Assembly: GCA_017477255.1 (NCBI GenBank)
Contig: JAFUXB010000002.1
Location: 29,996-93,995, forward strand
Direction: 5' to 3'
DNA: 64,000 nt
Source of the DNA: Bacilli bacterium
GTDB lineage: Bacteria > Bacillota_I > Bacilli_A > RFN20 > CAG-826
Shown in pieces: positions 2,741 through 56,184 of this stretch (position 1 is the first letter of the stretch; every line of letters starts with the position of its first letter). The position numbers and the translations under genes were made by a program. The notes below the pieces were generated by a model, which was not told the DNA's origin, made no database searches, and saw nothing but the letters and a program-made list of their open reading frames with translations.

Positions 2741-5700
2741 ATGATAATGTTTTATTCTAAAATAAAACATATGAATAAAAGGTTTGGATCACCAGCCTCC
2801 ATATTGAGAACATTTTCACTCGTTGGATATCTTTTTATGTCGTCCATGATCTGTGTCGAAGGTTCTTTTGATGGCAATAGAACAGTCGATCAAACAGATG
2901 TTATCGTAGAAGAACTTACTCCTGATCAAGAACACGAAATCATTGAAATCGAAAGTTTTAATGTTAGTTTAAAAAGTGATCAAACAGTTTTTAATGTTGG
3001 GGATACGATTTATTACAAAATTTCTTTTAATCCTGCCGATACTTATTATAAAACTTTAACATATAGTGTAAATAATCCAGAATTAGTCGAAGTTAATACA
3101 ATGACTAACTACATTAGATGTTTAAAAAATGGTTATGTAGAAATTACTTTTTTAAATGATCATAACCCATCTTTAACATCAACAGTTTCTTTTACAATTC
3201 AAACTTTACAGATTACATCGATTAAATTAAGTGAATCTCATTCAGATATTTTCTTAGGAAAAGGTGATACTTATAAATTATCAGAACCTACAATTCTTCC
3301 AGAAGAAGCAAAAGATTTTAAATATCATTATAAAAGTGATGATAATACAGTTGCTAATGTTAATGAAAACGGACTTGTCACTGGAATGAATGATGGAACT
3401 TGTAAAATTTATGTCGAAGCAGATGAAGGTGGAGCTTATGACTTTGTTTATGTAACGGTTAATGGTTTAAATTCATTTACTTTTGAACAAAGTGAATTTT
3501 CAATGTATCCAGATGGAGAAGAAACTCTTATAGTTAACTTATTACCAAATGATTTTTATAAATTTAACTTAAATTATGTAAAATTTACTTCAAACGACCC
3601 ATCACTTCGAGTAAATTTCGTTGAAGCTAATAATACAGACTTCACTTTAACTTATAAAATCACATATTCAAATACAACTTATATTGGAGAAAAAGACGTT
3701 AATGTAACAATGTCTTACGTTTATCCTGGTGGAACAAATAAAGTTTCAAACAACTTTATTGTTCATATTTTGAAATATGATTCAATTACTGTTGCTGATG
3801 TTGATACTACAAAAACAAAATTAAACCCATCTTTTACAGTTTATACAAAGGGTGGAAGATACATTAAAAAGACTTATTATCACACGATTTATTACATATC
3901 TTCAGTACAATCAAATATTAGAAAATATAACACTAAAAATTTCAAATTCGCTGCAGATTCCAACTTAAATTTAACAAATTCAACATATTCAAGGATTCAA
4001 ATATCAATTAAAAACTATGATATTTTAAAGCCTTCATACGATATTAAATTCTATCCAAATAAAGACTTAGATGAATTTATAACATTCACAGTTAATTTTA
4101 ATGTAGTAGAAGATACAACTGGAATCACAAACATTACTTTCACTAATTTATATACTGTTGATGAAAATAAAGAAAATAAAATTTGGTATTCAAAAATTAA
4201 TAATACGTTATTTTCTGGAGTAACTTTTAATAATAGTTCATCAAGTTTATATGCAAATAGTGGAATAGTAGTTGAACTTGATAATGATTCAAAAGATTTA
4301 GTTGATCTTGTTGTTAATGCAAACGGAAATGTCACTAAATTTAATTTACTAAAATTTAAGAATGATACGGATGTAGCAGAAGAATGCACGATTAAGATGA
4401 ATATTTATTCTAAATTTGATTATGAAACTAGTTCTAATCCACTTAAAAAACAAATAATTATTAAAGTTGTAAGTTCAGTTACAGGCTTTACAATGTCTCT
4501 TAATAATGGCGAATATAACGATGTAATGGACCAAACTTTAGATATTGATAATAAAGATATTACTTATTCAATTTATGCTAGATACACTTATGATTTATCT
4601 TCAAAATCCTCATCATTTGGATCAGGAAATTATAATAAAGGACTTTTAATTACATCAACTGATGAAACAATTTGTAGACCTTTATTAAATAACAACGGTT
4701 TTACAAGTTATTTAGTTGGAAATTGCGACATTATCGTTAGCTTAATGCCTGGCTATCAAGATGAATTATTTAGTAGAGTAATTCATTGTAATGTTCAATA
4801 TGAAAGTGTTTCTTCTGATGATTTATCAATTTCTTATGATGTAGTTTCTTTCCCTGAAGGATTTAATCCTGCAGAAGATTTATCTTATTTTGCTGTTGGT
4901 ACAATTTTAAAATTTACAATTGATGGAACAGAAGAAGCAAAAGGAAGAGGACTCCAAATTGTTTCGAATAACTCTAAGCTTTTATCAATTAATCAAGAAA
5001 CTTTAGAAGGCAAATGCTTAAAAGAAGGTGAAGCAACCGTCACAGTTAGACTTAAAGATAATTACTCAATTAGAAAAGAAGTTACTTTTAAAATTTATAA
5101 CACTACATCGAAACTTGCAGTTTATAAAGGAGAATTTTTAAAACGTGTTGTTGAACCAGATTATTATGCTTTAACTACATTAATTAATAAGAGTTATCAA
5201 TTATCGTATGCTAAAGAAAAAGCATGTACTGAACAAAAAATTAGTGTAGTAAAAGTAGTAAATCCTGCTGATAAAGCCGCTTTTGATTTATTCCAAGTTG
5301 ATGAAAATGGAAATATTGAAACAGGTGAAAAAGAATGTACTGGATTAATTATGCTTAATGTTGGAGGTGAAGAAAATCCATATAGACAAGAAACTAAAGT
5401 TTATATTATTATCAAGGCTAAATTCCATTTGGATTACACTAATTTTAGTTATTTAATTAGAAAATTAGTTGGTCATTATGGCTTATTCTTTGGAACATCA
5501 CTTCTTTGTATGACGTTTATTTTCTTAACATTTAATTCAATTGTAGCTTCTAGTATCGGAACAGCATTAAATATTGGTGCTGGATTTGGACTAGCTTATT
5601 TTAGTGAATATTTACAAGGATTTTCAGCAAGTAGAACTTTTGCTTGGTCCGATATTATGCTAGACTTCTATGGATACTTGACTGCAGCAGCGTTAGTATT

Positions 5701-5770
5701 TATTATAATTCTTGTATTTTTCTTTATTAGAAAATATAAGGAAAAACATCCAAAAACCCTGCAGAACTAA
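2741..5770 (+). CDS. Large surface protein: N-terminal membrane anchor/signal, multiple bacterial Ig-like (Big_2-type) domains, C-terminal VanZ-like 4-TM domain
   Basis: N-terminal hydrophobic segment ILRTFSLVGYLFMSSMICV. Big_2-like segments include DDNTVANVNENGLVTGMNDGTCKIYVEA, NNPELVEVNTMTNYIRCLKNGYVEITF and NSKLLSINQETLEGKCLKEGEATVTVRL. The C-terminal ~130 aa has about 4 TM helices and the VanZ-like motif FSEYLQGFSASRTFAWSDIMLDFYGYL. The exact start is uncertain: ATGs at 2741, 2747 and 2771 all lack an SD. Confidence 0.6.
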   Translation: MIMFYSKIKHMNKRFGSPASILRTFSLVGYLFMSSMICVEGSFDGNRTVDQTDVIVEELTPDQEHEIIEIESFNVSLKSDQTVFNVGDTIYYKISFNPADTYYKTLTYSVNNPELVEVNTMTNYIRCLKNGYVEITFLNDHNPSLTSTVSFTIQTLQITSIKLSESHSDIFLGKGDTYKLSEPTILPEEAKDFKYHYKSDDNTVANVNENGLVTGMNDGTCKIYVEADEGGAYDFVYVTVNGLNSFTFEQSEFSMYPDGEETLIVNLLPNDFYKFNLNYVKFTSNDPSLRVNFVEANNTDFTLTYKITYSNTTYIGEKDVNVTMSYVYPGGTNKVSNNFIVHILKYDSITVADVDTTKTKLNPSFTVYTKGGRYIKKTYYHTIYYISSVQSNIRKYNTKNFKFAADSNLNLTNSTYSRIQISIKNYDILKPSYDIKFYPNKDLDEFITFTVNFNVVEDTTGITNITFTNLYTVDENKENKIWYSKINNTLFSGVTFNNSSSSLYANSGIVVELDNDSKDLVDLVVNANGNVTKFNLLKFKNDTDVAEECTIKMNIYSKFDYETSSNPLKKQIIIKVVSSVTGFTMSLNNGEYNDVMDQTLDIDNKDITYSIYARYTYDLSSKSSSFGSGNYNKGLLITSTDETICRPLLNNNGFTSYLVGNCDIIVSLMPGYQDELFSRVIHCNVQYESVSSDDLSISYDVVSFPEGFNPAEDLSYFAVGTILKFTIDGTEEAKGRGLQIVSNNSKLLSINQETLEGKCLKEGEATVTVRLKDNYSIRKEVTFKIYNTTSKLAVYKGEFLKRVVEPDYYALTTLINKSYQLSYAKEKACTEQKISVVKVVNPADKAAFDLFQVDENGNIETGEKECTGLIMLNVGGEENPYRQETKVYIIIKAKFHLDYTNFSYLIRKLVGHYGLFFGTSLLCMTFIFLTFNSIVASSIGTALNIGAGFGLAYFSEYLQGFSASRTFAWSDIMLDFYGYLTAAALVFIIILVFFFIRKYKEKHPKTLQN

Positions 5771-8363: not shown

Positions 8364-8370
8364 GATTTTG

Positions 8371-8572
8371 CGTTGATAAGAAGTAGTAACTAATCTAACT
8401 TTTGTTTAGGGAGAGGCGAATAAGTGAAAACGCCTTCAAAAGATTTTAGTGAATTCAGCTTGGAGCATGTAGGAATACCGTAGTTATGCGTTAAATAATA
8501 TAAATTAAGTGCGTAAGAATTAGGATGGTACCGCGGAGAAATTCGTTCCTAAACTAATTCTTTTTTTATTTT
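8371..8572 (+). promoter_or_regulatory. T-box riboswitch leader, Phe specifier (UUC)
   Basis: Conserved T-box sequence AATTAGGATGGTACCGCGGAG at 8518-8538. Stem I elements are AGTAG, GGGAGAGG and GTGAAAAC. Candidate specifier GAA-TTC-A has TTC at 8454-8456. Terminator arms AGAATTAGGA (8516-8525) and TCCTAaaCTAATTCT (8548-8562) are followed by a T-run, immediately upstream of pheS. Confidence 0.85.
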
Positions 8573-9625: not shown

Positions 9626-12007
9626 ATGTTAGTATCACTTAATGAAATTAAAAAAGTAGTAGATATTTCTGATTTAACAGCTGAACAAATTGCTGAAAGA
9701 TTAACTGATGCTGGTGTAGAAGTTGAAGACATAAAAGTCGAATCCACCGCAACAAATTTAGTTATTGGACAAGTTCTTTCATGTGAAAATCATCCAGAAA
9801 GCGATCACTTACATATTTGTAAAGTTGATATTGGAACTGATGTTTTAGATATAGTTTGTGGAGCTCCTAATGTTAGAAAAGGCTTAAAAGTAATTGTTGC
9901 TTTAGTTGGAGCAAAATTACCTGGTGGAGAAATTAAAAAGAGCGTAATTCGTGGTCAAGAAAGTAATGGAATGTTATGTTCATTACTTGAACTTGGAGTT
10001 AGTGAATCTTTTTTAACTGAAGCTCAAATTAATGGCATTGAAGAATTAAAAGATGATGCAAAAGTTGGTGATAAAGAAGTACTTAAGTACTTAAATTTAG
10101 ACGATAAAATCTTAAATTTAAAGGTTTTAGCAAATAGAAGCGATTGTATGTCTTTACATAATGTTGCTCGTGAAATTGCTGGTTTATTTAAAAAAGAAAT
10201 TAAATTACCAGAATTTAAAGATAATGCTAATTTTAAAGCTGATTTTGTAACTGGAAGTGAAAGTGAAAATTCAAAATGTTTTAAAGCTAGAGTTTTCAAA
10301 AATATCAAAGTTAAAGAATCACCAGAGTGGTTAAAAATTGCTTTAAGAAGAGAAGGTATTAGATCAATTAACAATATTGTTGATATCGGAAACTATGCAA
10401 TGCTTTTAACTGGTCAACCAGTTCACATGTATGATTTAGATAAATTAGAAAAGAATGAACTCATTGTAAAAGATGATTTTGAATGTGAAGTTGTTGCTTT
10501 AGATGGAAAAACATATAAAGTAGAAAAAGGCGATTTAGTCGTTACTTCTAATAATAAACCTGCTTGTTTAGCTGGTGTTATGGGCTTAGAATGTGTTGAA
10601 GTTAATGAAGAAAGTAAAAATATTGTTTTAGAAGTTGCTTCATTTAATGGAACACGTGTAAGAAAAACTTCATTAAGACTTGGATTAAGTAGTGACTCAT
10701 CTTCAAGATTTATTAAAGGTATAAATATTGAAAATCAAGATTATACAATGCTTTTAATTTCTAATTTAATGGCTGAACTTGCTGACGCTAAAGAAATTAG
10801 TGAAACAATTAATTATGACGTTCAAAATCATGAACAAAAAGTAATTAGTTGCAATGTTGATTTTATTAATAATTTATTAGGAACTGATTTCAGTTTTGAA
10901 GAAATTAAAGATACTTTAGAAGCTTTATCATTCAAAGTAAATGGAGATAAAGATGAATTTAAAGTAACTGTTCCAAGTTACAGAATTGATGTTGAAGGAA
11001 AAGCTGATTTAGCTGAAGAAGTAATTAGATATAATGGATTTGATCGAATTATTCCTTCACTTCCAGTTATGGAAACTACAACTGGTGGAAGAAGCGCAAC
11101 TGATACAAAAATTAAAGCAATTGAAGATTATTTATTAAATAATGGATTAAATGAAATTATTTCTTATACATTATTAAATGAAAAAGATAGTAATTCATGG
11201 AATTATTTAAATAAATTTGAACCATATGTAATTCTTAATCCACTTACAGAAGATCATAAATATGTAAGAAGAAATCTTTTAAAGAGCATGCTTAATACAG
11301 TTGAATATAATTTAGCTCATTTAAATAGAAACTTTGGTTTATTTGAAATTGGAAACTGCGAAACTAAAGAGAAAAATGAAATTCATTTAGCTGTTGGTTT
11401 AAGTGGAGTTAAAGAAGGACAAGAATTATATAAATCAATTAAATACGATGTATTCGATGCTAAAGGTATTTTAGAAAACATTTTACATATGTTTAATATT
11501 GCTGATAGTAGAGTAAAATACGATAGAATTGAAGGTAATGAATTCCATCCTTATAGAAGCATGAATGCTTATCTTGATAACAAGTTATTTGCTGTTTTAG
11601 GAGAAGTTCATCCAAGTGTTAAAGAAGAATTTAATTTTAATAAAGATGCTTGTGTATTAATGGAAATTAATTTAAGCAGATTATTTGAAGCAAAAACTAG
11701 AAATAATAAGAGTAATGAAATCTCAATTTACCCACGTATTTCACGTGATTACGCATTTGTTATTTCTAAAGATGTAAATTACTCAAATATAGTAAAAGAA
11801 ATCAAAAAAGCATCCTCATTAATTAAAGGAATTAAGCTCTTTGATTTATATGAAGGAGAGCATATTATGAAAGGATTTATTTCTATTGCTCTTACTGTTG
11901 AATGTGAGAAACAAGAAGGCACATTTACTAATGATGAAATCACTGTAATTGATAACAAAATTCGTGAAATCATTTCGACTAAATTAGGTGCTAAAATAAG
12001 AGGCTAA
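9626..12007 (+). CDS. pheT: Phenylalanine--tRNA ligase beta subunit
   Basis: 793 aa. N-terminal tRNA-binding domain (GQVLSCENHPESDHLHICKVDIG), then B3/4, B5 and FDX-ACB-like C-terminal regions. GGAGG SD. Immediately follows pheS. Confidence 0.93.
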   Translation: MLVSLNEIKKVVDISDLTAEQIAERLTDAGVEVEDIKVESTATNLVIGQVLSCENHPESDHLHICKVDIGTDVLDIVCGAPNVRKGLKVIVALVGAKLPGGEIKKSVIRGQESNGMLCSLLELGVSESFLTEAQINGIEELKDDAKVGDKEVLKYLNLDDKILNLKVLANRSDCMSLHNVAREIAGLFKKEIKLPEFKDNANFKADFVTGSESENSKCFKARVFKNIKVKESPEWLKIALRREGIRSINNIVDIGNYAMLLTGQPVHMYDLDKLEKNELIVKDDFECEVVALDGKTYKVEKGDLVVTSNNKPACLAGVMGLECVEVNEESKNIVLEVASFNGTRVRKTSLRLGLSSDSSSRFIKGINIENQDYTMLLISNLMAELADAKEISETINYDVQNHEQKVISCNVDFINNLLGTDFSFEEIKDTLEALSFKVNGDKDEFKVTVPSYRIDVEGKADLAEEVIRYNGFDRIIPSLPVMETTTGGRSATDTKIKAIEDYLLNNGLNEIISYTLLNEKDSNSWNYLNKFEPYVILNPLTEDHKYVRRNLLKSMLNTVEYNLAHLNRNFGLFEIGNCETKEKNEIHLAVGLSGVKEGQELYKSIKYDVFDAKGILENILHMFNIADSRVKYDRIEGNEFHPYRSMNAYLDNKLFAVLGEVHPSVKEEFNFNKDACVLMEINLSRLFEAKTRNNKSNEISIYPRISRDYAFVISKDVNYSNIVKEIKKASSLIKGIKLFDLYEGEHIMKGFISIALTVECEKQEGTFTNDEITVIDNKIREIISTKLGAKIRG

Positions 12008-12008
12008 T

Positions 12009-12488
12009 ATGAAGATTTATTTTAAAGAAATAAACGGAACAAAAGATTTTGATATAGCTATTGATCTTAAAAAATTAAATGAAGAATATGAATCTTCAAC
12101 AATTAAAAAGATTAATTCTCTTTCAGGTACAATTAAAGCAAATAAAGTCGATGACATCTTAATTTTAGACTTTCAAATTGACTCAAATTTGACTTTAATT
12201 AGCTCATATTCACTTAAGGATTTTGATAAAGATTTTAGTGTCGATGATACTCTTTATTTTACTGATGAAGAAGAATGTGCAAGTGAAGATACTTTATTAG
12301 TTAAAAACGAAATTGATATTGATAATATTGTCTATTCTTTACTTGTTACATCACTTCCAATTAAGCTTTATGCAGACGATGAAAAAGTAATAAAAGGTAA
12401 TGGTTATAGAGTCTTAAAAGAGGGTGAAGAAGATGAAGAAAATGATGAAAGTTCACCCTTCGATGTACTTAAAGATATTGAATTATAA
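12009..12488 (+). CDS. DUF177/YceD-like protein (Cys-less variant)
   Basis: 159 aa, acidic. The layout resembles YceD/YlbN: L.G.I......ILDFQIDSNLTLISSYSLKDF in place of the C.RCL segment, then IDIDNIVYSLLVTSLPIKL, and a C-terminal SSPFDVLKDIEL like PFAxLkxL. The Zn-binding cysteines are absent. Confidence 0.5.
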   Translation: MKIYFKEINGTKDFDIAIDLKKLNEEYESSTIKKINSLSGTIKANKVDDILILDFQIDSNLTLISSYSLKDFDKDFSVDDTLYFTDEEECASEDTLLVKNEIDIDNIVYSLLVTSLPIKLYADDEKVIKGNGYRVLKEGEEDEENDESSPFDVLKDIEL

Positions 12489-12536
12489 CTACTAAAAAAC
12501 TACTACTAAAAATCGTTCTACTAAATAACTACTAAT
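12486..12536. repeat. Array of four to five direct CTACTAA heptamers (left arm of an inverted repeat-array pair)
   Basis: CTACTAA at 12489-12495, 12503-12509 (preceded by an overlapping CTACTA from 12500), 12518-12524 and 12529-12535. Each is embedded in A-rich context (AACTACTAAA). The array lies between the DUF177 stop and the terminator hairpin. Confidence 0.8.
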
Positions 12537-12569
12537 TGCCATAATTTCATGGCAATTTTTATTTTTTTT
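12535..12569 (+). terminator. Rho-independent terminator of the pheST-DUF177 unit
   Basis: 8-bp stem ATTGCCAT (12535-12542) / ATGGCAAT (12549-12556), 6-nt loop, long T-run to 12569. Confidence 0.8.
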
Positions 12570-12597
12570 CAAAAAAACTCTTTTTTTATTTTATAGT
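12568..12597 (+). promoter_or_regulatory. Candidate promoter of the small two-gene cassette (TTCAAA-N18-TATAGT)
   Basis: TTCAAA at 12568-12573 and TATAGT at 12592-12597. The predicted TSS near 12604 is downstream of the track ATG at 12599 and upstream of the strong SD at 12617. Confidence 0.35.
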
Positions 12598-12631
12598 TAT
12601 GTTACACAAAATTAACGAGGAGGAAAAAGAG

Positions 12632-12907
12632 ATGGTTGTTAATGTTTTAAACGGTAATTTAAATGAAAAAGAAAAAGCTGCCTATTGGGCATATGCTTTA
12701 AAAAATACAGATGGAAGAAAATTAGTTTCACTTGATGTTGATTTAGGTGAAGATGATGCTGAATTAACTTATCACTTTGATACTATACCATTTGAAAGAA
12801 TCAGAAGAATCACTGGTTACCTTGTTGGTACATTAGACAGATTCAATGATGGTAAGAGAGCTGAAGAACACGACAGAGTAAAACACATGACTGAAATGGA
12901 TCTTTAA
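12632..12907 (+). CDS. Small stand-alone protein with NrdD-type C-terminal glycyl-radical loop (about 91 aa)
   Basis: C-terminus FERIRRITGYLVGTLDRFNDGKRAEEHDRVKHM matches the class III RNR C-terminal signature (RxxGYLG...FNxGKxxExxxRxxH). There is no catalytic barrel and no CxxC zinc ribbon. Start moved to ATG 12632 because GAGGAGG (12617-12623) lies 8 nt upstream. The track start at 12599 has no SD. Confidence 0.6.
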   Translation: MVVNVLNGNLNEKEKAAYWAYALKNTDGRKLVSLDVDLGEDDAELTYHFDTIPFERIRRITGYLVGTLDRFNDGKRAEEHDRVKHMTEMDL

Positions 12908-12908
12908 T

Positions 12909-13148
12909 ATGGAACTTAGCGTAAACACAAAATCTTTTTTATCAGAATTTGTATTTCCACATTTCGTAAATTCAGATCTTAATTCAAAAAACATCGATGA
13001 AATCATTGATTACATCGTTGAGAATTATGAAAAACCACTTTCTTTATCTATTGCTGATGGAGAATTTGTTGATTTGGAAAATTTTGAAAATATAGGAAAT
13101 GTTATTTTAGATTTGTCTTCTTACGCAAGATCTTTAAAGAGCATTTAA
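12909..13148 (+). CDS. Hypothetical small acidic protein (79 aa), coupled to the glycyl-radical mini-protein gene
   Basis: ORF starts 1 nt after the upstream stop (TAATATG). No recognisable motif. Strongly acidic (D/E-rich). Confidence 0.45.
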   Translation: MELSVNTKSFLSEFVFPHFVNSDLNSKNIDEIIDYIVENYEKPLSLSIADGEFVDLENFENIGNVILDLSSYARSLKSI

Positions 13149-13151
13149 TTG

Positions 13152-13179
13152 TTAGTAGATTTCTAGTAGTTTTCTAGTA
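13152..13179. repeat. Array of three TAGTAG/TAGTAT units at 11-bp spacing, the reverse complement of the CTACTA(A) array (right arm)
   Basis: TTAGTAG at 13152-13158, CTAGTAG at 13163-13169, CTAGTAT at 13174-13180. Units read TTTCTAGTAG, and TTAGTAG is the exact reverse complement of CTACTAA. The array lies between the cassette stop and its terminator. Confidence 0.75.
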
Positions 13180-13195
13180 TATAAATTGTAATTTG

Positions 13196-13228
13196 AAAAA
13201 GGAGATGATAAATTCATCTCTTTTTTTG
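13196..13228 (+). terminator. Rho-independent terminator of the cassette
   Basis: Stem GAGATGA (13202-13208) / TCATCTC (13214-13220), 5-nt loop, T7 run. An A-run upstream means it could act bidirectionally. Confidence 0.8.
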
Positions 13229-13304
13229 TTGCTTAAAATATTTTTTTAAAAAAGTGTATTTTCTGTCTTGTAAATATTTATAAATAAATATAAACTATTA
13301 GTAC

Positions 13305-13334
13305 AAGTGGAGTGAAATGGAGTAAAGTGGAATG
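13305..13334 (+). promoter_or_regulatory. MraZ-type operator: three 10-bp-phased direct repeats
   Basis: AAGTGGAGTG / AAATGGAGTA / AAGTGGAATG at 13305-13314, 13315-13324 and 13325-13334. The last repeat overlaps the mraZ ATG. A candidate promoter TTGTAA (13268-13273)-N17-TAAACT (13291-13296) lies just upstream. Confidence 0.6.
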
Positions 13335-13763
13335 TTATTCGGAAATTTTGAATATCAACTTGATGACAAAGGAAGATTTTCAGTTCCAAGTAAACTTAGA
13401 GGTGAATTAGGAACTAACGTTTTTCTTTTGAAAGGGTTTGATGGTTGCTTATCAATTTATACCGAAGCTGACTTCATTCAATACACTCAAAAGCTTAAAG
13501 ATTTACCTTTTGAAAAAGAAAAAGCAAGACTACATCAACGTATTCTCCTTGGATCAGTTGAAATGCTTTCAATTGATAAACAAGGAAGATTACAAATTCC
13601 AGCTAAAACAATTAAAAAGTATCAAATTTCTAAAAATATAGTCATTTTAGGACTAATGGATCATATCGAAATATGGTCAAAAGAAGCTTATGAAGATTAT
13701 ATAGTTAAAAATGAAAAGGAATTTGAGACTAACGCTGAAGATTTATTAAAAAATGAAATCTGA
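13332..13763 (+). CDS. mraZ: Transcriptional regulator MraZ
   Basis: 143 aa with two SpoVT/AbrB-like repeats carrying DDKGRFSVPSKLR and DKQGRLQIPAKTI. First gene of an mraZ-rsmH cluster. Confidence 0.93.
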   Translation: MLFGNFEYQLDDKGRFSVPSKLRGELGTNVFLLKGFDGCLSIYTEADFIQYTQKLKDLPFEKEKARLHQRILLGSVEMLSIDKQGRLQIPAKTIKKYQISKNIVILGLMDHIEIWSKEAYEDYIVKNEKEFETNAEDLLKNEI

Positions 13764-39196: not shown

Positions 39197-40949
39197 AAGA
39201 ATTAAAAACGATATAAATCTTTTACCTGATAAGCCAGGTGTTTATCAAATGTTTGATAAAGATGGAACTATTATTTATGTTGGAAAAGCAAAAAACTTAA
39301 AAAATAGGGTTTCACAATACTTTTTGAATGCACAAGTGGGTAAAACTTTTGCGATGGTATCGCATGTTGATCATTTCCAAATAATAATTACTAATAATGA
39401 AAAAGAGGCGTTTTTGCTTGAAATGAATCTCATTCAAAAATATATGCCTAGATACAATATTTTATTAAAAGATGATAAACATTACCCATATATTGCAATT
39501 CATAATGTTAAACATCCATATATTTCAATTGCTAGAAAAATAAATGATAAAAGATGCGAATATTTCGGACCATATCCACGTAGTAGCAGTGCTTTTGATG
39601 TAATAGATTTACTTAATAAATTATATCCTTTAAGAAAATGCAACACTGTTCCTAAAACTGCATGTCTTTATTATCATTTAGGTCAATGCCTAGGTCCTTG
39701 TATTAGAGAAGTAACTAAAGAAGAATATGATGAAATTCTCGATTCAATCAGAAGATTTTTAAAAGGTGATAACAAAGAAGTACTTTCTAAATTAAAAGCT
39801 CAAATTAAAGAATTAAGCAATAATTTAGAGTTTGAAAGAGCCAATGAATTAAAGAAATATTATGAAGCAATCTTGCATATTAATGATCAACAGCATATTG
39901 AACTTCAAGATAAAGTTGATCGTGATATTTTTGCCTTCTATACACAAGAAAATTACTGTTCTTTATCGCTTTTTATTTATAGAAAAGGTGAATTAATCGG
40001 AAAACGTAATTTTACTTATGAAATCATTGGTGATTTAAATGAATTTATTGTGAATCTTATTTCTCAATATTATGAATATAATCTTTTACCTAAAGAAATT
40101 GTTGTAGGAACTGAAGAAATTAAAGAAAGATTAGAAAGCTTACTTGATGCAAAGATTGTTACAACAACAAGAGGTAAATTGTTCGATTTAATCGGAGTAG
40201 TTCAAGAAAATGCTAAAGATGATCTTAAAGAACATTTCGTTTCAGCTAGATTAGATGATGATAAACTAGAAGTATTAGAAAGACTTGGAGAAATTTTACA
40301 TATTCCAACTCCATATAATATTGAATTATTTGATAATTCACATTTACAAGGTACAAACGCTATAGGAGCAATGGTAAATTTTATCAATGGTGAACCAAAT
40401 AAAAGGGGTTATAGAACATATAATATAATGTCTGAAAATAAAAAAGACGACCTTTCTAGCATGGAAGAAGTATTGACTAGACGCTATTCAAGACTTCGTG
40501 ATGAAGGACAAAAATTCCCAGATCTTGTAATTCTTGATGGTGGCGAAAATCAATTGAATATTGGTAAAAAAGTATTTAATCAGTTGAATATTAGTATAAA
40601 TTTAGTAGGTTTAGTTAAAAGTGATAAACATAAAACTAATGGATTATTAGATGTAAATGGCAATGAATTTTACTTCGAAGATGATAAGCCATTATTCTAC
40701 ATGCTTACTCGAATGCAAGATGAAGTTCATAGATTTGCTATCAAAACTCACATAAAAAAACGTAGTAAATCTGTATTTGTAAGCATTTTTGATGGTATTG
40801 AAGGATTGGGTCCTAAAAAAAGAGAGCTTTTATTAAAGCGTTTTAACACTATTGAAGAACTTAGTAATGCATCATTGGAAGAATTTGAGCAAATTTTACC
40901 TAAAAATATTGCATTACAACTGTATAATAAATTACGAGGTATCGAATGA
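39189..40949 (+). CDS. uvrC: Excinuclease ABC subunit C
   Basis: GIY-YIG (PGVYQMFDKDGTIIYVGKAKNLKNRV), UVR domain (FERANELKKYYEAI), endonuclease domain (IELFDNSHLQG), and a C-terminal HhH. Confidence 0.95.
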   Translation: MNERIKNDINLLPDKPGVYQMFDKDGTIIYVGKAKNLKNRVSQYFLNAQVGKTFAMVSHVDHFQIIITNNEKEAFLLEMNLIQKYMPRYNILLKDDKHYPYIAIHNVKHPYISIARKINDKRCEYFGPYPRSSSAFDVIDLLNKLYPLRKCNTVPKTACLYYHLGQCLGPCIREVTKEEYDEILDSIRRFLKGDNKEVLSKLKAQIKELSNNLEFERANELKKYYEAILHINDQQHIELQDKVDRDIFAFYTQENYCSLSLFIYRKGELIGKRNFTYEIIGDLNEFIVNLISQYYEYNLLPKEIVVGTEEIKERLESLLDAKIVTTTRGKLFDLIGVVQENAKDDLKEHFVSARLDDDKLEVLERLGEILHIPTPYNIELFDNSHLQGTNAIGAMVNFINGEPNKRGYRTYNIMSENKKDDLSSMEEVLTRRYSRLRDEGQKFPDLVILDGGENQLNIGKKVFNQLNISINLVGLVKSDKHKTNGLLDVNGNEFYFEDDKPLFYMLTRMQDEVHRFAIKTHIKKRSKSVFVSIFDGIEGLGPKKRELLLKRFNTIEELSNASLEEFEQILPKNIALQLYNKLRGIE

Positions 40950-41917
40950 AAAAAGAAATAGAAGTTACAATAGAAAAAGACAATAGAGATATTGAAGCTA
41001 TTAAAAAAGATATATTTGAAACTGAAGATTCTAAAGAATTAATTGGCTTATTGTATGCATTAATGGAAGAAAAAGAATTCGATTTAATCGATGAATGTTG
41101 CAAAAAAAGAGCTGAATTATTAGAAGGCGAATCTTTAGCCGATTATATTGTTTTTTCACTTGTTTATTTAAATTTTAGACAAGTTCCTGAAGAAAAAATT
41201 GCTGAAACTATTGAACATTTTAGAAGTATGCCTTATAAATCACAAGAAATTGAAGAAATTTTAAATAATTTATATCAAATTAACGAAAATATTAAATCTT
41301 CAATCTTGGTTAATCCAAAAGATGAGAATAACATCAAAGAAGTTATGAATAATTTAACTTATGGATCAAATGATGTCGTATTTGAAAATGTCTTAACACT
41401 TATTAATTTATATGAAGCTGAAGGTGTTGATTTTAGTAAGAAAATTGTAAAAATTTTACATGATAGAGATGATTATGATGAAGGCTATTTCTATATGTTA
41501 ATTTATTTATTCTGTACAAAAAACAACGATGAAATCGTATTTTATAAAGATGGTATCGAACAAAGAGTTGTTCCTTCAAAATATAGTGAAGTCTATGAGA
41601 ACTATTTGGCAAGAATCCTAAATTGTAATCAAACAATAATTGATAATACTAAAAATGTCTCCGTTACATCTGGAATTATGGTTTATGCAATTATGCTTTT
41701 AAGTGAACTTTTCCCTGATAGATTTGATAATATCGATATCGAATCAATGTGTGCATCGATATTTAAGTTTATGTGTGAGCAATTTGCATATGATTATGAA
41801 TCAGATCCAGCTTATATAAAACTTGAGAAAAATGAAGATGAAATCTCTAAATTTGATAATATGATTGCATGTTTATTTAAAGAAGACGAGACAATAGATC
41901 CATCTAGACTTGCTTAA
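40946..41917 (+). CDS. Hypothetical acidic, probably all-helical cytoplasmic protein (323 aa)
   Basis: ATGA overlap with the uvrC stop suggests translational coupling. No motif I recognise, no TM segments. Confidence 0.5.
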   Translation: MKKEIEVTIEKDNRDIEAIKKDIFETEDSKELIGLLYALMEEKEFDLIDECCKKRAELLEGESLADYIVFSLVYLNFRQVPEEKIAETIEHFRSMPYKSQEIEEILNNLYQINENIKSSILVNPKDENNIKEVMNNLTYGSNDVVFENVLTLINLYEAEGVDFSKKIVKILHDRDDYDEGYFYMLIYLFCTKNNDEIVFYKDGIEQRVVPSKYSEVYENYLARILNCNQTIIDNTKNVSVTSGIMVYAIMLLSELFPDRFDNIDIESMCASIFKFMCEQFAYDYESDPAYIKLEKNEDEISKFDNMIACLFKEDETIDPSRLA

Positions 41918-49329: not shown

Positions 49330-49431
49330 TGTTGTAACTCTTACTAGCTACAACCGCATTAAAAAGGTCACTAAGAAATTGCTAAAATTCACCTTAAAAG
49401 CGAGTAATTATTTATTAAGAGGAGGAAAGAT
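49330..49431 (+). ncRNA. Candidate ribosomal-protein L21 leader (5' UTR of rplU-prp-rpmA)
   Basis: About 100 nt of untranslated leader between the promoter and rplU, with hairpin GTTGTA (49331-49336) / TACAAC (49349-49354). Firmicutes carry an L21 leader at this position. I cannot verify the covariance model by eye. Confidence 0.35.
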
Positions 49432-53307: not shown

Positions 53308-56184
53308 ATGAAAAGATTTATTGCATATTTATTGTTAGGATTAAGTATATTAGTTTCAGTATTTGTTGGATTCGTTCCTACATTTTATAATGTAAACGCA
53401 AGTGCTGATTATTCAGGTGGTAGAGAATTTATTTATTCTATTGCTTTAAAAGAATATGATGAAAAAGGCGATGCCATCAACTATATTAATGGAACTCAAT
53501 CTTATAAAGATGAAAGCCAACTTGCTAGTAGTGTTGATGATGTAATTGATGAATTCAAAAGCAGATTAAGTAAAGCTAATGTTACTAATGTTAAAGTTGA
53601 AAGAATCGATAATGCTAAAGACGATGCTCAAACTGACAAAATCTACAGCATTAGAGTTGCTTATAAAGCTCAATATGAACAACTTTACAATGTTATCAAT
53701 AATTATTTAACTTTTGACTGGAATTTAAGTATTGCAATTACTAAAGATCCATTCAATTTCTCACAATATGTCGATTCAGATGTTAACAATGAACAATTAT
53801 TTGTTAAAAATAGTGCTGAATTAATCGCAACAACTGGTGAATTACCAGTCATTAAGTATGAATTAAAAGATCCACAAAAATTCCATGATGACATCTTTGC
53901 TAAAGTTACTGGTGAAGAAAGTTCAAGTGATTCACACGCTAATTCATTTAATAAAAATGTATTAAGAGCTGACGAAGAAGAAAGTGGACCATCAAATGAT
54001 GACTATATCTATATTGTTAATAACTGGAGCGATAAATATGATTTAACAAAAGCTTTAACAGCTGGTGGAAATTCATATTATACAGACGCAATTAATAACG
54101 TTATTTATAGACTTGATACAACTAACCCATCAAGCATGTTCTATGACTATGATGAAGCTAGTGAAACTAAAGTCTTCCAATATTTAAAACTTGATTATTC
54201 AAAATTCTGCCCAGATTTAAGTTCATTAACTGATCAAGCAGCAGTTCAAAGAATTGTATTTATGTGTGCAAATATCGAAGTTGCCAAATTAAATTCAACT
54301 CCTTATAAATTCAATATCAAATTATTAAATGAATCATATCCAACATTATCATCAACTGAAAATGGTAATAATACAATCAACGCATTCGTTGAAACATTAA
54401 AGAGCAAAGGTACATTAACTTTCTCAACATTCATTATTTCAACTATATTTGCATTCTGCTTAGTATCATTATTTATGGCTTTAAATTATGGTATTGCAGC
54501 AGTTGCAGGTGTTTCAACTGGTACTGGAATTACTTTATTAAGTGCAGCACTAATTTCATTGTTTGGCGTTGAATTTAACGTTGGATCAATTGTTACATTA
54601 ATTATTGTTGCGATTGCATCGATATTCTCAAGTACATTGTTCTTTAAGAAAGTAAAAGAAAATGTTTACATGGGTAAACAACTTAAGAAAGCTTATATAG
54701 ATGCTAGTAAGAAAATGATTGGTTTCCATATTGATGTTCCTGTCGTTTTACTCGCATTTGGTTTAGTTTCTTATTTAATTCCAAACCCAATTACAATGTC
54801 AATTGGTGCCATCTTAATTTTAGGTGCTATCTTCAATGTACTTACTAATTTCTTAGTTATTAGACCACTTTATTGGTTACTTGCTAACTCATCATTTATA
54901 AGTGAACATGTTGGTTTATTAAATATTTCAAAGAAATTAATTCCTGATTTATCAAAAGATGAAAAACCAACATACTTTGATTCATTTAAAACTACTGAAA
55001 AACCAACGAGAAATAGTTTAATTAAAGGTATTGTTGCTTTAGTTTTATTGGTTGGTAGTGTCTTAGCAATTTCATTATCACATGCATTTACTGGAAGTAT
55101 TTATAGAGCAAACGTTTCTTCGAGTGAAAATTCACAAGTTTATATTACTTATAAAGTTTTATCATCAGATGAAACAAAAAAAGGTATGGCTCCAAATACA
55201 ACTTTAGAATCATATGTTTTAGATAATATTTATACTTATGATAACAACACTAAAGGTGCAAAGATTAAATATGAATCCGTAAAAGGAATGTATAGCCAAA
55301 AAACTATTGATGATCTTGGAAACATTCAATTATCATTTACTTATATTGTTAATTTAAAGAGTCAAATTTCATCGAATAATTCATTCATTTTCGAATATGA
55401 ATCAATTAGTAAAGTTGGAACTTTAAATCAAGTTATTGATGAAGCAATTCATTCATCACCTGATTTCAAAATTGAAGCTGCTGATGAATTTACAGTCTAT
55501 TTAGTAGATGTAGTTAATGAGTCAGTTGATACATTAAATAAAGATTTATTGATCCTTTCATTAATTGGTGTTGGAATTTGTACAGTTTATGTACTCTTCA
55601 GATTTGGATTAAGTAAGGCTTTAGTTTCATTATTACTTGTCGGTGGAAGTGCAACAATTTCAGTTGGATTATTCGCAGCAATTGGTAGCGGAGCTTCAAG
55701 CGTTCATACTTTAGGTGTATTAATTATATTTGTTATTGCTTATGGCGTTTTAATGTATCACTTTGGATCACAAAGAGAAATATTAAAAGACAATAAAAAT
55801 ATCTTATTTGGTGCAGATGCAGCAGAAAAGAAGAAAGAATTATTGCTCCAAAGCAATCAATTAAGCATTTCAAGCACACTTGTATCATTAGCAATTTCAT
55901 TAATTTTATTAGTAAGCTTCATTATTTCTAGCTCATTTAAAAATCAAGTTATTATCTTAGCAATTATTGGTTCAGCCTTAATTCTCTTACTTGCTGCAAC
56001 ATTCATATTACCTTTACAAAATCTTAATTCATTCATTTGGACTAAAATTAAAGGTTTATTCAAAAATATGAGTGAAAAGAGAAGTAACAAGAAAGATAAA
56101 GGCAATAAAGACAACAAAAAACAAACAAATAGACCAAAAGATGATGGACCTCAAGAAGCCATCTTCATTGGTATCAATGATTAA
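53308..56184 (+). CDS. secDF: Protein translocase subunit SecDF (fused), divergent
   Basis: 958 aa. One N-terminal TM, a large extracytoplasmic domain, a 5-TM block, another TM with a second extracytoplasmic domain, and a second 5-TM block. This is the 12-TM SecD+SecF layout. The position between ruvAB and recJ matches Bacillus secDF. The call rests on topology and synteny. Confidence 0.65.
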   Translation: MKRFIAYLLLGLSILVSVFVGFVPTFYNVNASADYSGGREFIYSIALKEYDEKGDAINYINGTQSYKDESQLASSVDDVIDEFKSRLSKANVTNVKVERIDNAKDDAQTDKIYSIRVAYKAQYEQLYNVINNYLTFDWNLSIAITKDPFNFSQYVDSDVNNEQLFVKNSAELIATTGELPVIKYELKDPQKFHDDIFAKVTGEESSSDSHANSFNKNVLRADEEESGPSNDDYIYIVNNWSDKYDLTKALTAGGNSYYTDAINNVIYRLDTTNPSSMFYDYDEASETKVFQYLKLDYSKFCPDLSSLTDQAAVQRIVFMCANIEVAKLNSTPYKFNIKLLNESYPTLSSTENGNNTINAFVETLKSKGTLTFSTFIISTIFAFCLVSLFMALNYGIAAVAGVSTGTGITLLSAALISLFGVEFNVGSIVTLIIVAIASIFSSTLFFKKVKENVYMGKQLKKAYIDASKKMIGFHIDVPVVLLAFGLVSYLIPNPITMSIGAILILGAIFNVLTNFLVIRPLYWLLANSSFISEHVGLLNISKKLIPDLSKDEKPTYFDSFKTTEKPTRNSLIKGIVALVLLVGSVLAISLSHAFTGSIYRANVSSSENSQVYITYKVLSSDETKKGMAPNTTLESYVLDNIYTYDNNTKGAKIKYESVKGMYSQKTIDDLGNIQLSFTYIVNLKSQISSNNSFIFEYESISKVGTLNQVIDEAIHSSPDFKIEAADEFTVYLVDVVNESVDTLNKDLLILSLIGVGICTVYVLFRFGLSKALVSLLLVGGSATISVGLFAAIGSGASSVHTLGVLIIFVIAYGVLMYHFGSQREILKDNKNILFGADAAEKKKELLLQSNQLSISSTLVSLAISLILLVSFIISSSFKNQVIILAIIGSALILLLAATFILPLQNLNSFIWTKIKGLFKNMSEKRSNKKDKGNKDNKKQTNRPKDDGPQEAIFIGIND

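Follow-up and report, generated by a model that had tools for sequence, protein, structure and literature searches.

What is a 91-residue protein that carries the radical loop of the class III (anaerobic) ribonucleotide reductase (RNR) NrdD doing among housekeeping genes? Many strict anaerobes rely on class III RNR for their DNA precursors, although contact with O2 irreversibly destroys the glycyl radical of the enzyme. In the window, the whole 64-kb stretch of DNA analyzed here, the gene that raises this question, which we call mini-NrdD, is flanked by pheST-yceD upstream and mraZ-rsmH downstream (Table 1). The window genes are housekeeping genes, and neither nrdD nor nrdG was found within the 64 kb. 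GenBank lists the product as 'hypothetical protein IJ656_00910 [Bacilli bacterium]'. The initial annotation had described a product of about 91 aa with a Shine-Dalgarno (SD)-supported ATG at 12632 and a strong GAGGAGG SD, and both are present in the sequence. The longest open reading frame (ORF) over the gene begins at 12599, the ATG at 12632 being internal to it; since homologs open with M-x-VNV and gene callers give 91 aa on identical contigs, we place the start at 12632. The motif AACGAGGAGG also precedes the ortholog in a related locus (L001). The protein ends in ...PFERIRRITGYLVGTLDRFNDGKRAEEHDRVKHMTEMDL, and the codon of Gly62 occupies positions 12815-12817.

Table 1. Features of the mini-NrdD cassette and its borders (positions in the window)
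Feature	Position	Strand	Basis or remark
Upstream CTACTA(A) motif array, inverted relative to 13152-13179	12487..12535	.	19-nt arms
Terminator-like hairpin and T-run	12534..12567	+	Hairpin 12534-12557; 9-10 bp stem AATTGCCAT...ATGGCAATT, then TTTATTTTTT
Candidate sigma-70-type promoter TTCAAA-18-TATAGT, weak	12568..12597	+	9/12 match
Shine-Dalgarno GAGGAGG	12618..12624	+	7 nt 5' of ATG 12632; read from sequence
mini-NrdD gene, 91-aa stand-alone glycyl-radical protein	12632..12907	+	GenBank MBR1581568.1
N-terminal domain, aa 1-52, beta-alpha-beta-beta, family-specific, Cys-free	12632..12787	+	AF2; alignment
NrdD-type glycyl-radical tail, aa 53-85, PFERIRRITGYLVGTLDRFNDGKRAEEHDRVKH	12788..12886	+	Profile and PDB matches; Gly62 codon inside
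79-aa acidic ORF, pI 4.2, lineage-specific companion	12909..13148	+	Starts 1 nt past the mini-NrdD stop
Downstream array TTAGTAGATTTCTAGTAGTTTTCTAGTA, inverted partner of 12487-12535	13152..13179	.	Inverted-repeat search
Hairpin and T-run closing the two-gene unit, ahead of the mraZ promoter region	13196..13230	+	Stem 13202-13220, then TTTTTTTG

Mini-NrdD resembles NrdD solely in residues 53 to 87, which correspond by homology to the extreme C terminus of NrdD, the final ~35 residues of its glycyl-radical domain (e.g., PDB 8p23; T4 1h79). The NrdD class was tested with Pfam PF13597 and NCBIfam TIGR02487 and PRK07111. The Pfam NRDD profile matches with an E value of 1.4e-7 and 31 bits (score cut-off, 26.2 bits), aligning residues 54 to 85 with profile positions 533 to 562 of 562. 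The NCBIfam NrdD equivalogs match at 6.9e-12 and 1.3e-11 over their last 33 to 35 positions only, scoring 44.5 bits where the equivalog cut-off is 764. Residues 706 to 739 of the NrdD in PDB 8p23 match at 1e-7, or at 1.1e-10 when the family profile is used. The GrcA/YfiD class, defined by homology to the RVxGY loop, was tested with Pfam Gly_radical (PF01228; InterPro IPR011140); mini-NrdD has no such homology, PF01228 gave no match at E ≤ 1, and the GrcA-type NCBIfam entries gave none either. We therefore reject membership in the GrcA/pyruvate formate-lyase (PFL) family, and the profile search proposed in the initial annotation confirms its reading of the loop as NrdD type rather than PFL/GrcA type.

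A full-length NrdD is an enzyme of about 550 to 850 aa with a ten-stranded α/β barrel and a finger-loop cysteine, a CxxC...CxxC Zn ribbon before the glycine loop, and a C-terminal RxxGY loop followed by a conserved segment. Mini-NrdD has only the last of these, sharing the radical glycine and the ...DRFNxxKxxExxDRVxH segment. Its length and the few profile positions that it covers agree with the earlier remark that it has no catalytic barrel; it also lacks the ATP-cone. The protein contains no cysteine and so, as had also been remarked, has no Zn ribbon. In its place stands an unrelated β-α-β-β domain of 50 aa. The label 'anaerobic ribonucleoside-triphosphate reductase', which some relatives of 88 to 95 aa bear while others are annotated 'hypothetical', is misleading.

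Mini-NrdD belongs to a large, unnamed family of ~90-aa proteins of the Bacillota, in gut and rumen Firmicutes. A family profile search returned 2,716 matches at E ≤ 1e-3 among 50%-identity representatives, and the best 150 of these, 56 to 236 aa long, nearly all align over most of the profile. The best 120 database matches to mini-NrdD itself are 52 to 92% identical to it, with a query coverage of 88 to 100% except for one 58-aa fragment (64%). More than 80 species-level genomes hold the gene, including those of the cultured strains Ruminococcus flavefaciens FD-1 and ATCC 19208. The window protein shows the family pattern over its full length, that is, an N-domain of the form M-x-VNV..G..L...E..AY... 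LD..LDGD.VDLTY.F plus the tail. The survey of homologs that had been called for covered 70 family members and the 80 genome loci whose ORF could be read, and every one of them has Gly62; 17 further positions are invariant across the family alignment. Mean pairwise identity is 0.90 in the tail versus 0.44 in the N-domain. The tail, RIRRITGYLVG...KH, is nearly invariant, and positions 10 to 25 after the glycine are as strongly conserved as the glycine loop itself.

The AlphaFold2 (AF2) model of mini-NrdD has pLDDT values of 81 to 87 at residues 1 to 50 and of about 47 to 57 in the tail. The low values are consistent with a tail that is flexible when alone, and a folded N-domain followed by a flexible tail is what would be expected if the tail took up its fold only within a partner protein. 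The N-domain, in which E14 and Y18 are invariant in the family, sits where NrdD carries its Zn ribbon. Its derivation from a ribbon that lost its cysteines, or from the pre-tail region of NrdD, is unsupported: hhalign against the pre-tail region gave a probability of 0.5%, and a fold search gave no match reaching E ≤ 0.001, the best Foldseek match in the PDB having an E value of 0.087.

Two bacterial loci, L010 and L021, have the gene order nrdD-mini-nrdG-nrdR. NrdD is intact in both, with CGYTG...CPHCG ahead of FERIRRITGY, and the tail of mini-NrdD is identical to that of its neighbor at 31 of 32 positions in L010 and at all 32 in L021. The tail codons differ by 11 synonymous changes and 1 nonsynonymous change in L010 and by 8 and 0 in L021 (19:1 in total). 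With many synonymous and almost no nonsynonymous changes, it is selection, not recent duplication, that keeps the tails alike. These are thus cases in which the tail is nearly identical to that of an intact enzyme of the same genome, as would be expected of a spare part.

The same ratio bears on the idea that mini-NrdD is a nonfunctional remnant of a decayed nrdD, for which it may be said that only the last ~35 residues are NrdD-like. However, a tblastn search of the window with NrdD had the 34-aa tail of mini-NrdD as its sole match, so that no NrdD-like sequence lies nearby in any frame, an intact ORF with a conserved N-domain has been kept in more than 80 species, and the gene is preceded by a strong SD and bracketed by terminator-like hairpins. 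We reject a decayed nrdD as having next to no chance of being correct, given the wide conservation of the family and the selection on its tail; the initial annotation, too, saw no frame-shifted NrdD-homologous sequence beside the gene.

It is also conceivable that mini-NrdD acts on the activase NrdG, competing with NrdD for it or storing a radical, and so tunes NrdD activation without ever docking. A nearly invariant tail that is the NrdG recognition loop, its predicted flexibility and accessibility (AF2), and the adjacency to nrdG in L010 and L021 would suit such a decoy or regulator. It would, however, leave unexplained the conservation 10 to 25 positions past the glycine, where the residues pack in the NrdD barrel, as well as the phage operons described below, whose tail-less NrdD would have mini-NrdD as its only radical source. 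We consider this explanation improbable.

Six phage-type contigs (L108, L115, L120, L127, L144, and L160) carry an nrdD gene without the Gly motif. A mini-NrdD gene lies directly 3' of it in all six, and nrdG comes next in five (not in L120). L115 is a phage region with genes for a DNA polymerase, a helicase, MazG, and an exonuclease. In four of the six, nrdD ends in ...E-x-[VI]-RR-[IL]-K-stop, exactly at the position of the glycine. The position of this stop resembles the end of O2-cleaved NrdD. Mini-NrdD is the one radical source open to the tail-less NrdD of these contigs and would act in trans there; we read these recurrent pairs as putative natural split RNRs that would provide natural, if indirect, evidence for such action. 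Together with the gene order in L010 and L021, the six contigs tie the stand-alone carrier of an NrdD-type loop to class III RNR, as had been suggested from the window alone.

A tail-less nrdD also occurs with a smaller partner. In the bacterial contigs L177 and L179, it is directly followed by a tail-only ORF, with nrdG next in L179, and in the phage-like L180, the tail-only ORF lies 1.4 kb downstream, with four small ORFs between. These micro ORFs of 49 to 54 aa, of which we found no description in the literature, bear the same tail (GFERIRRITGYLVGT.DRFNNAK..EE.DRVKH) as a small polypeptide of its own, but they have no conserved N-domain.

Since bacteria, too, can encode a tail-less NrdD and its tail as two ORFs (L177 and L179), a different role for the window gene is a live alternative: the NrdD of this genome may itself be tail-less, and mini-NrdD would then be an obligate subunit, the only radical carrier of a class III RNR in two pieces, required for all anaerobic dNTP synthesis and not for repair. 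The six phage contigs, which pair a tail-less nrdD with a ~90-aa mini-NrdD, speak for it, as does a very strong SD among housekeeping operons, such as an essential gene might have. Among NrdD C-terminal fragments from the protein database, 55 of the best 120 lack the Gly motif, a figure that is no prevalence estimate, as the sample is biased to short fragments and some come from frameshift-prone long-read assemblies (L177 and L178 are frameshifted). On the other hand, all of the split cases keep the small ORF in the nrd operon, directly abutting nrdD except in L180, whereas the window gene has yceD and mraZ as neighbors and no Gly-less nrdD before it, and both of the bacterial loci that combine nrdD with a ~90-aa mini-NrdD have an intact NrdD. 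Overall, we regard an obligate subunit in this genome as possible but rather doubtful.

Separation from nrd genes is the common state in the family, since 79 of 80 species genomes, all but that of L021, have no nrd gene within 10 kb of mini-NrdD; L010 does not count among the 80. Most of the evidence from linkage is therefore indirect. A phage origin of the window gene was considered and rejected: tblastn against INPHARED matched only short unannotated fecal contigs, and the window is all housekeeping. The lack of linkage, an N-domain unrelated to anything known by fold search and hhalign, and a lineage-specific partner ORF in the window would also fit a tail borrowed from NrdD that now acts, as radical donor or as subunit, in some other, unrecognized enzyme, perhaps together with the 79-aa ORF. 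Yet the informative functional neighbors are always nrdD or nrdG, purifying selection keeps the tail identical to that of NrdD, and the 149 flanking genes include no recurrent barrel-type partner of another kind; we give this idea very little credence.

Because the window gene forms an independent transcription unit that is unlinked to nrd genes, a spare part is its most likely role in this genome. That mini-NrdD is a free-standing NrdD glycyl-radical module for class III RNR, which supplies the tail in trans and serves here as a spare part, is a proposal to which we give about an even chance. We infer the following sequence of events. NrdG, with SAM and its reduced [4Fe-4S] cluster, would abstract the Cα hydrogen of Gly62, whose loop, RIRRITGYLVG, matches the one that NrdG recognizes in the NrdDs examined. 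The flexible tail (residues 53 to 87) would then insert into the NrdD barrel of a core that has no tail of its own and pass the radical to the active-site cysteine, restoring nucleotide reduction. The folded N-domain (residues 1 to 50) may replace the Zn ribbon of NrdD as a handle, keeping the tail soluble and helping it to dock. In E. coli NrdD, the residue at which O2 cuts the chain is Gly681. In this genome, mini-NrdD might accordingly rescue NrdD that O2 has cut at the radical glycine, as GrcA/YfiD does for PFL. A point against the spare part is that O2-cleaved NrdD keeps its Zn ribbon, which would need to move aside.

The gene neighborhoods of relatives bear on the link with oxygen. An exact palindrome, GTTGCANNTGCAAC, occurs once per locus in 14 loci, always 70 to 140 nt upstream of mini-NrdD, and a manual count on the L026 sequence places its center near -41.5 relative to a TAcAAT -10 element. 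A gene for a Crp/Fnr-type regulator with conserved cysteines adjoins mini-NrdD at the loci with this palindrome. In about 12 species, mini-NrdD follows a Crp/Fnr-type box and lies beside a gene for reverse rubrerythrin or a flavodiiron protein. Reverse rubrerythrin is 3' of it in the R. flavefaciens group, rubrerythrin is 5' in L096, and the flavodiiron protein is 3' in L007-9. The probable cotranscription with reverse rubrerythrin or flavodiiron protein genes in these species points to a stress regulon, which also counts against an obligate subunit. The expression of yfiD is FNR-dependent. E. coli nrdDG is FNR-activated as well, and a Crp/Fnr box is therefore compatible with the obligate subunit too. 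Upstream of the window gene we found no Crp/Fnr box, and among the genes flanking it we saw none related to oxygen. The GrcA-like analogy with oxygen damage, drawn in the initial annotation, thus gains indirect support from the linkage in relatives, while the window itself contributes no such element or neighbor.

GrcA rescues O2-cleaved PFL (PMC8683613). Like GrcA/YfiD of E. coli and Y06I of phage T4, mini-NrdD is a small stand-alone copy of the C-terminal glycyl-radical segment of a large enzyme. Its relatives can likewise be encoded near the enzyme and its activase and linked to O2- or redox-responsive regulation, and the expected logic is the same, with a radical installed by the activase and subsequent docking into a tail-less enzyme. 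The sequences are nevertheless unrelated, the loop of mini-NrdD being RIRRITGY (NrdD) and not RVSGY (PFL). The N-terminal half of mini-NrdD is folded and its tail flexible in the AF2 model, whereas YfiD has a disordered N-terminal half and a structured C-terminal half (PMC8683613). The predicted target also differs, being class III RNR rather than PFL, and relatives of mini-NrdD may in addition serve as the sole radical carrier in naturally split enzymes.

RNRs in more than one piece have precedents. Phage 'genes-in-pieces' nrdA is reportedly a split RNR. The class II NrdJa/NrdJb of Pseudomonas aeruginosa is a split RNR as well (PMC4520616), made as two polypeptides cut near the C terminus, to which the phage pairs of tail-less nrdD and mini-NrdD are similar. 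The latter differ in RNR class and in the piece that is detached, here the very tail that bears the radical. The window gene, moreover, adjoins no RNR gene.

Taken more broadly, we find it somewhat probable that across much of the Bacillota, and in their phages, class III RNR has its radical on a detachable small protein, which would be a spare part beside an intact NrdD and the sole carrier beside a tail-less one. We found no paper describing an NrdD-type spare part, in line with the earlier statement that no characterized equivalent is known, and a literature search on Ruminococcus nrdD found nothing. To our knowledge, a repair route, that of GrcA/YfiD, is known only for PFL among the glycyl radical enzymes. 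A review of June 2026 has spare parts only for formate lyases (PMC13450708), and whether they exist for other glycyl radical enzymes is a question posed in the field (PMC8683613). If this broader reading is true, a glycyl radical enzyme besides PFL would for the first time have a system of repair or exchange, and RNR would have a new quaternary architecture, in which the radical-bearing tail is an exchangeable, separately regulated, cofactor-like subunit. It would then matter for the survival of obligate anaerobes under transient oxygen and for the exchange of radical cofactors between polypeptides. Gut and rumen Firmicutes, cultured R. flavefaciens among them, have the family in abundance, so that the spare-part question is directly testable, and for reconstitution, a two-piece enzyme is available ready-made in the phage operons. 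There is also an annotation problem, as tail-less nrdD genes may pass as pseudogenes.

The 79-aa acidic ORF that follows mini-NrdD is possibly translationally coupled to it. In a database of 5.8 billion proteins, its only match is itself (P0121), and it has no Pfam, NCBIfam, or PHROG family. A 73-aa ortholog lies 3' of mini-NrdD in L001 to L004 (41% identity, ungapped, E of 2e-15); beyond this narrow lineage we found no homolog, and the ORF is absent from all of the other mini-NrdD contexts examined. A single-sequence AF2 model reached a pLDDT of 51 and is unusable. The ORF is thus rejected as a general partner, and its suggested role as a chaperone or adaptor is not borne out.

Terminator-like hairpins bracket the two genes, four such sites being found around the cassette where 0.2 are expected, in agreement with the terminator assigned to it at the outset. 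The upstream hairpin, terminator-like, would end yceD and insulate the cassette, and the arms of the downstream one (13196-13208 and 13214-13226) are 92% complementary. The promoter ascribed to mini-NrdD did not hold up, as matches of the 9/12 type are no more frequent in the region than by chance (5 found versus 6.8 expected in shuffled sequences). The inverted CTACTA(A) arrays on either side of the cassette have arms that are 89% complementary and lie 647 nt apart, and their core, AAATCTACTA, is present on both sides in L001 as well.

The window encodes a stand-alone protein of 91 aa, hereafter the mini, whose C-terminal end, PFERIRRITGYLVGTLDRFNDGKRAEEHDRVKHMTEMDL, carries an NrdD-type glycyl-radical loop, as the initial annotation had proposed. 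Residues 54-85 align with positions 533-562 of the 562-position Pfam NRDD profile (E 1.4e-7; 31 bits, with the cut-off at 26.2 bits), the NCBIfam NrdD equivalogs match in their last 33-35 positions only (E 6.9e-12 and 1.3e-11, with scores far under the full-length cut-offs), and the sole PDB relative is NrdD entry 8p23, residues 706-739 (E 1e-7; E 1.1e-10 with the family profile). The loop had been set apart from that of pyruvate formate-lyase (PFL) and GrcA, and a Pfam search indeed gives no match to their domain PF01228; the reported lack of zinc ribbon cysteines also stands, the protein being cysteine free. The longest open reading frame would begin at 12599. We retain the Shine-Dalgarno-supported ATG chosen earlier, because homologs open with M-x-VNV and gene callers give 91 aa on identical contigs. 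In GenBank, the product is MBR1581568.1, "hypothetical protein [Bacilli bacterium]."

The mini is a member of a large family without a name. Its best 120 database matches are mostly 83-100 aa long (range, 58-144), cover 88-100% of the query in all but one case at 52-92% identity, and are for the most part annotated "hypothetical." A profile search of 1.84 billion representatives at 50% identity yielded 2716 matches at E <= 1e-3, the top 150 of which (56-236 aa) nearly all span most of the profile; no model in Pfam, NCBIfam, or PHROG is dedicated to the family. When one genome per species was scanned, 596 of the 600 pattern matches listed proved to encode a relative, and the best 80 of those listed are all full-length minis, from Ruminococcus, Oscillospiraceae, Christensenellales, Lachnospiraceae, Erysipelotrichaceae, Anaerovoracaceae, Eubacteriaceae, and others. 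Cultured carriers include R. flavefaciens FD-1 and ATCC 19208. RefSeq and UniRef name the 88-aa R. flavefaciens minis (WP_028516600.1, WP_028515631.1, WP_019678631.1, and others) "anaerobic ribonucleoside-triphosphate reductase," which is misleading, as these proteins match only its final ~35 residues.

Across a 70-sequence alignment, E14, Y18, R56, R58-L64 (RRITGYL, with the radical glycine), G66, N72, K75, E78, and R82-H85 are invariant, and the tail (aa 53-85) averages 0.90 in pairwise identity, versus 0.44 for the N-domain; that the gene is a dead remnant is, in our view, scarcely conceivable. AlphaFold2 models the N-domain with confidence as beta-alpha-beta-beta (pLDDT 81-87), whereas confidence in the tail is low (pLDDT 47-57). 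The N-domain resembles neither any solved fold in a structure search nor the NrdD region preceding the tail. Many minis bear short Cys-rich extensions after ...RVKH (GVSCSCC, MSYSCCN, SDCAC, CDCD, SCGCEACH, LACDCA), from which the window copy is free, and one metagenome-assembled genome (MAG), Oscillospiraceae bacterium RGIG3163, encodes two distinct paralogs on separate contigs (L057 and L070).

The genes found beside nrdD are of two kinds. In a Clostridia MAG (L010) and a Bacillota MAG (L021), the order is nrdD-mini-nrdG-nrdR, and NrdD possesses both its zinc ribbon and its own tail, with which the mini tail is identical at 31/32 (L010) and 32/32 (L021) positions. Since the corresponding codons differ at 11 and 8 synonymous versus 1 and 0 nonsynonymous sites, respectively, the two tails are kept alike by selection rather than by recent duplication. 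That the mini serves a different partner enzyme is accordingly placed among the least probable readings, above the dead remnant only. In L021, Cys-rich ends occur on both NrdD (..ECNCD, 4669) and the mini (..ECSCAEF, 4983).

The second kind is a natural split enzyme. Among 80 IMG/VR loci, nrdD lies directly 5' of the mini in 7, and in all 6 with readable ends (L108, L115, L120, L127, L144, and L160) it stops just past the zinc ribbon. Four of these six end in ...E-x-[VI]-RR-[IL]-K-stop at the position of the would-be glycine, a vestige of ERIRRIT. The nrdD stop overlaps the mini ATG in five and lies 9 nt upstream in L120; nrdG comes next after the mini in all but L120, and L115 is a phage region with DNA polymerase, helicase, MazG, and exonuclease genes. 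Judging from these sequences, the mini would be the only possible radical carrier in such operons, which therefore represent a natural complementation experiment. Tail-less ends recur elsewhere: with an NrdD pre-tail profile, 120 C-terminal fragments were retrieved, 65 with and 55 without the tail, a sample that is biased to fragments, in part from frameshifted long-read assemblies, and so indicates recurrence, not frequency. In L177 and L179, tail-less NrdD (...VEKLRELRKKYPNMP...stop) is followed by a Shine-Dalgarno sequence and an open reading frame of 54 or 49 aa, essentially the tail alone, with nrdG next in L179; in phage-like L180, a 52-aa tail frame lies 1.4 kb downstream of nrdD. The separate radical-motif frame is thus either a ~90-aa mini or a 49- to 54-aa tail-only peptide, and several distinct types of tail-less NrdD end recur, such as ...RRIK-stop and ...VEKLRELRKKYP...C.C-stop (IMG/VR loci; L177, L179, and L180; database proteins P0305-P0424). 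Such nrdD genes risk being taken for pseudogenes.

We propose that NrdG would put the radical on Gly62 of the mini and that the flexible tail may then enter the barrel of an NrdD without its own tail, where the catalytic cysteine would receive the radical. The N-domain possibly serves as a handle that stands in for the zinc ribbon. A mini acting instead as a decoy for NrdG seems improbable, if slightly less so than a different partner. In its presumed way of working, the mini is analogous to GrcA/YfiD, which rescues oxygen-cleaved PFL; however, it lacks PF01228 homology and so lies outside that family, its folded and flexible halves come in reversed order, and its predicted target enzyme differs. 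By every criterion other than the homologous last ~35 residues, it is not an NrdD. As of 2021, only YfiD and Y06I were validated as glycyl-radical spare parts, and others were speculated to exist for other glycyl radical enzymes (PMC8683613). Our literature search turned up neither a spare part for NrdD nor a split NrdD.

The window mini may be a spare part or, as in the split operons, an obligate subunit of a tail-less NrdD. No nrdD or nrdG was found within the 64-kb window, and nrd genes are likewise absent within 10 kb of the mini in about 78 of 80 species genomes. Among 149 open reading frames immediately flanking minis, rubrerythrin and cNMP_binding, the latter comprising Crp/Fnr-type regulators, are the most frequent families, with 11 members each. 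The R. flavefaciens group has the arrangement crp(-), mini(+), reverse rubrerythrin(+); rubrerythrin lies directly 5' of the mini in L096, and a flavodiiron protein gene lies 3' in Ornithoclostridium (L007-9). Fourteen loci (L007-9, L026, L027, L034, L037, L038, L039, L044, L049, L051, L056, and L089) each contain a single exact copy of the palindrome GTTGCANNTGCAAC, always 70-140 nt 5' of the mini ATG; it occurs nowhere else in 96 loci. By hand count in L026, ~29 nt separate its center from a downstream TAcAAT -10 element, which puts it at the class II position, -41.5. The adjoining regulators have four cysteines in common (positions 17, 23, 114, and 118; L007 and L026), a spacing that we take to resemble that of E. 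coli FNR. Palindrome and regulator together make up a candidate redox regulon, which may also cover reverse rubrerythrin or the flavodiiron protein. We moderately favor the spare part, because the gene in the window forms a unit of its own with no nrd linkage, because the only bacterial loci that pair a ~90-aa mini with nrdD (L010 and L021) have an intact NrdD, and because other species wire the mini to peroxide and oxygen defense; the obligate subunit is a possible but less probable alternative. The interpretation given in the initial annotation is partly supported, and the split contexts extend it. The window locus itself shows no oxygen-related neighbor or Crp/Fnr box. In 3 of the 80 genome loci, metK (S-adenosylmethionine synthetase) immediately adjoins the mini; SAM is a cosubstrate of NrdG, and this adjacency could be meaningful or due to chance.

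The claim that the cassette is its own expression unit is supported by terminator-like hairpins bracketing both genes (4 sites versus 0.2 expected) and not by its promoter-like element, a match no better than chance. The partner frame of 79 aa, acidic (pI 4.2), begins 1 nt past the mini stop. The order pheST-yceD-mini-small frame-mraZ is kept in close relatives (L001-L004; 74% identity), which encode a 73-aa ortholog of the partner (41% identity, gap-free, E 2e-15). The partner has no further homolog among 5.8 billion proteins and no Pfam, NCBIfam, or PHROG family, and its predicted model is unusable. It is a real gene and a lineage-specific companion outside the general system, and a chaperone or adaptor role, once suggested for it, is not upheld.

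Coordinates of features in the window
Feature	Position	Strand	Remark
1009-aa frame	2741-5770		Big_2 domain only
T-box leader	8364-8553		5' of pheS; 102 bits
CTACTA(A) array	12487-12535		flanks cassette
Shine-Dalgarno GAGGAGG	12618-12624	+	7 nt 5' of ATG 12632
mini-NrdD gene	12632-12907	+	91 aa
Gly62 codon	12815-12817	+	radical glycine, in NrdD-type tail
CTACTA(A) array	13152-13179		flanks cassette, inverted
GTGGA-type direct repeats	13305-13334		three, 10 nt apart
mraZ	13332-13763		
323-aa frame	40946-41917		no Pfam at E <= 1e-5
L21 leader	49342-49415		5' of rplU region; 40 bits
958-aa frame	53308-56184		no Pfam at E <= 1e-5

The GC content of the window is 28%. Beyond the cassette, its genes are housekeeping ones (mnmA, dxs, T-box-pheST, yceD, mraZ-rsmH, glgBP, pnp, rnj, ileS, mutS2, uvrC, tig, lon, valS, obg, ruvAB, recJ, relA, hisS, and aspS), amid which lie the two large frames without a Pfam match. 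The CTACTA(A) arrays have 19-nt arms, 89% complementary, with 647 nt between them; ACTACTAA occurs 9 times in the window versus 2.8 expected, 3 of the 9 at these arrays. Their core, AAATCTACTA, is conserved on both sides in L001 (~9900-9925 and ~10520-10535) with diverged spacers, and they could be operators or insertion scars. Just 5' of mraZ, the GTGGA-type repeats, AAGTGGAGTGAAATGGAGTAAAGTGGAATG, conserved in L001 as AAGTGGAAGAAAGTGGAGTAAAGTGGAATG, look like a candidate MraZ operator.
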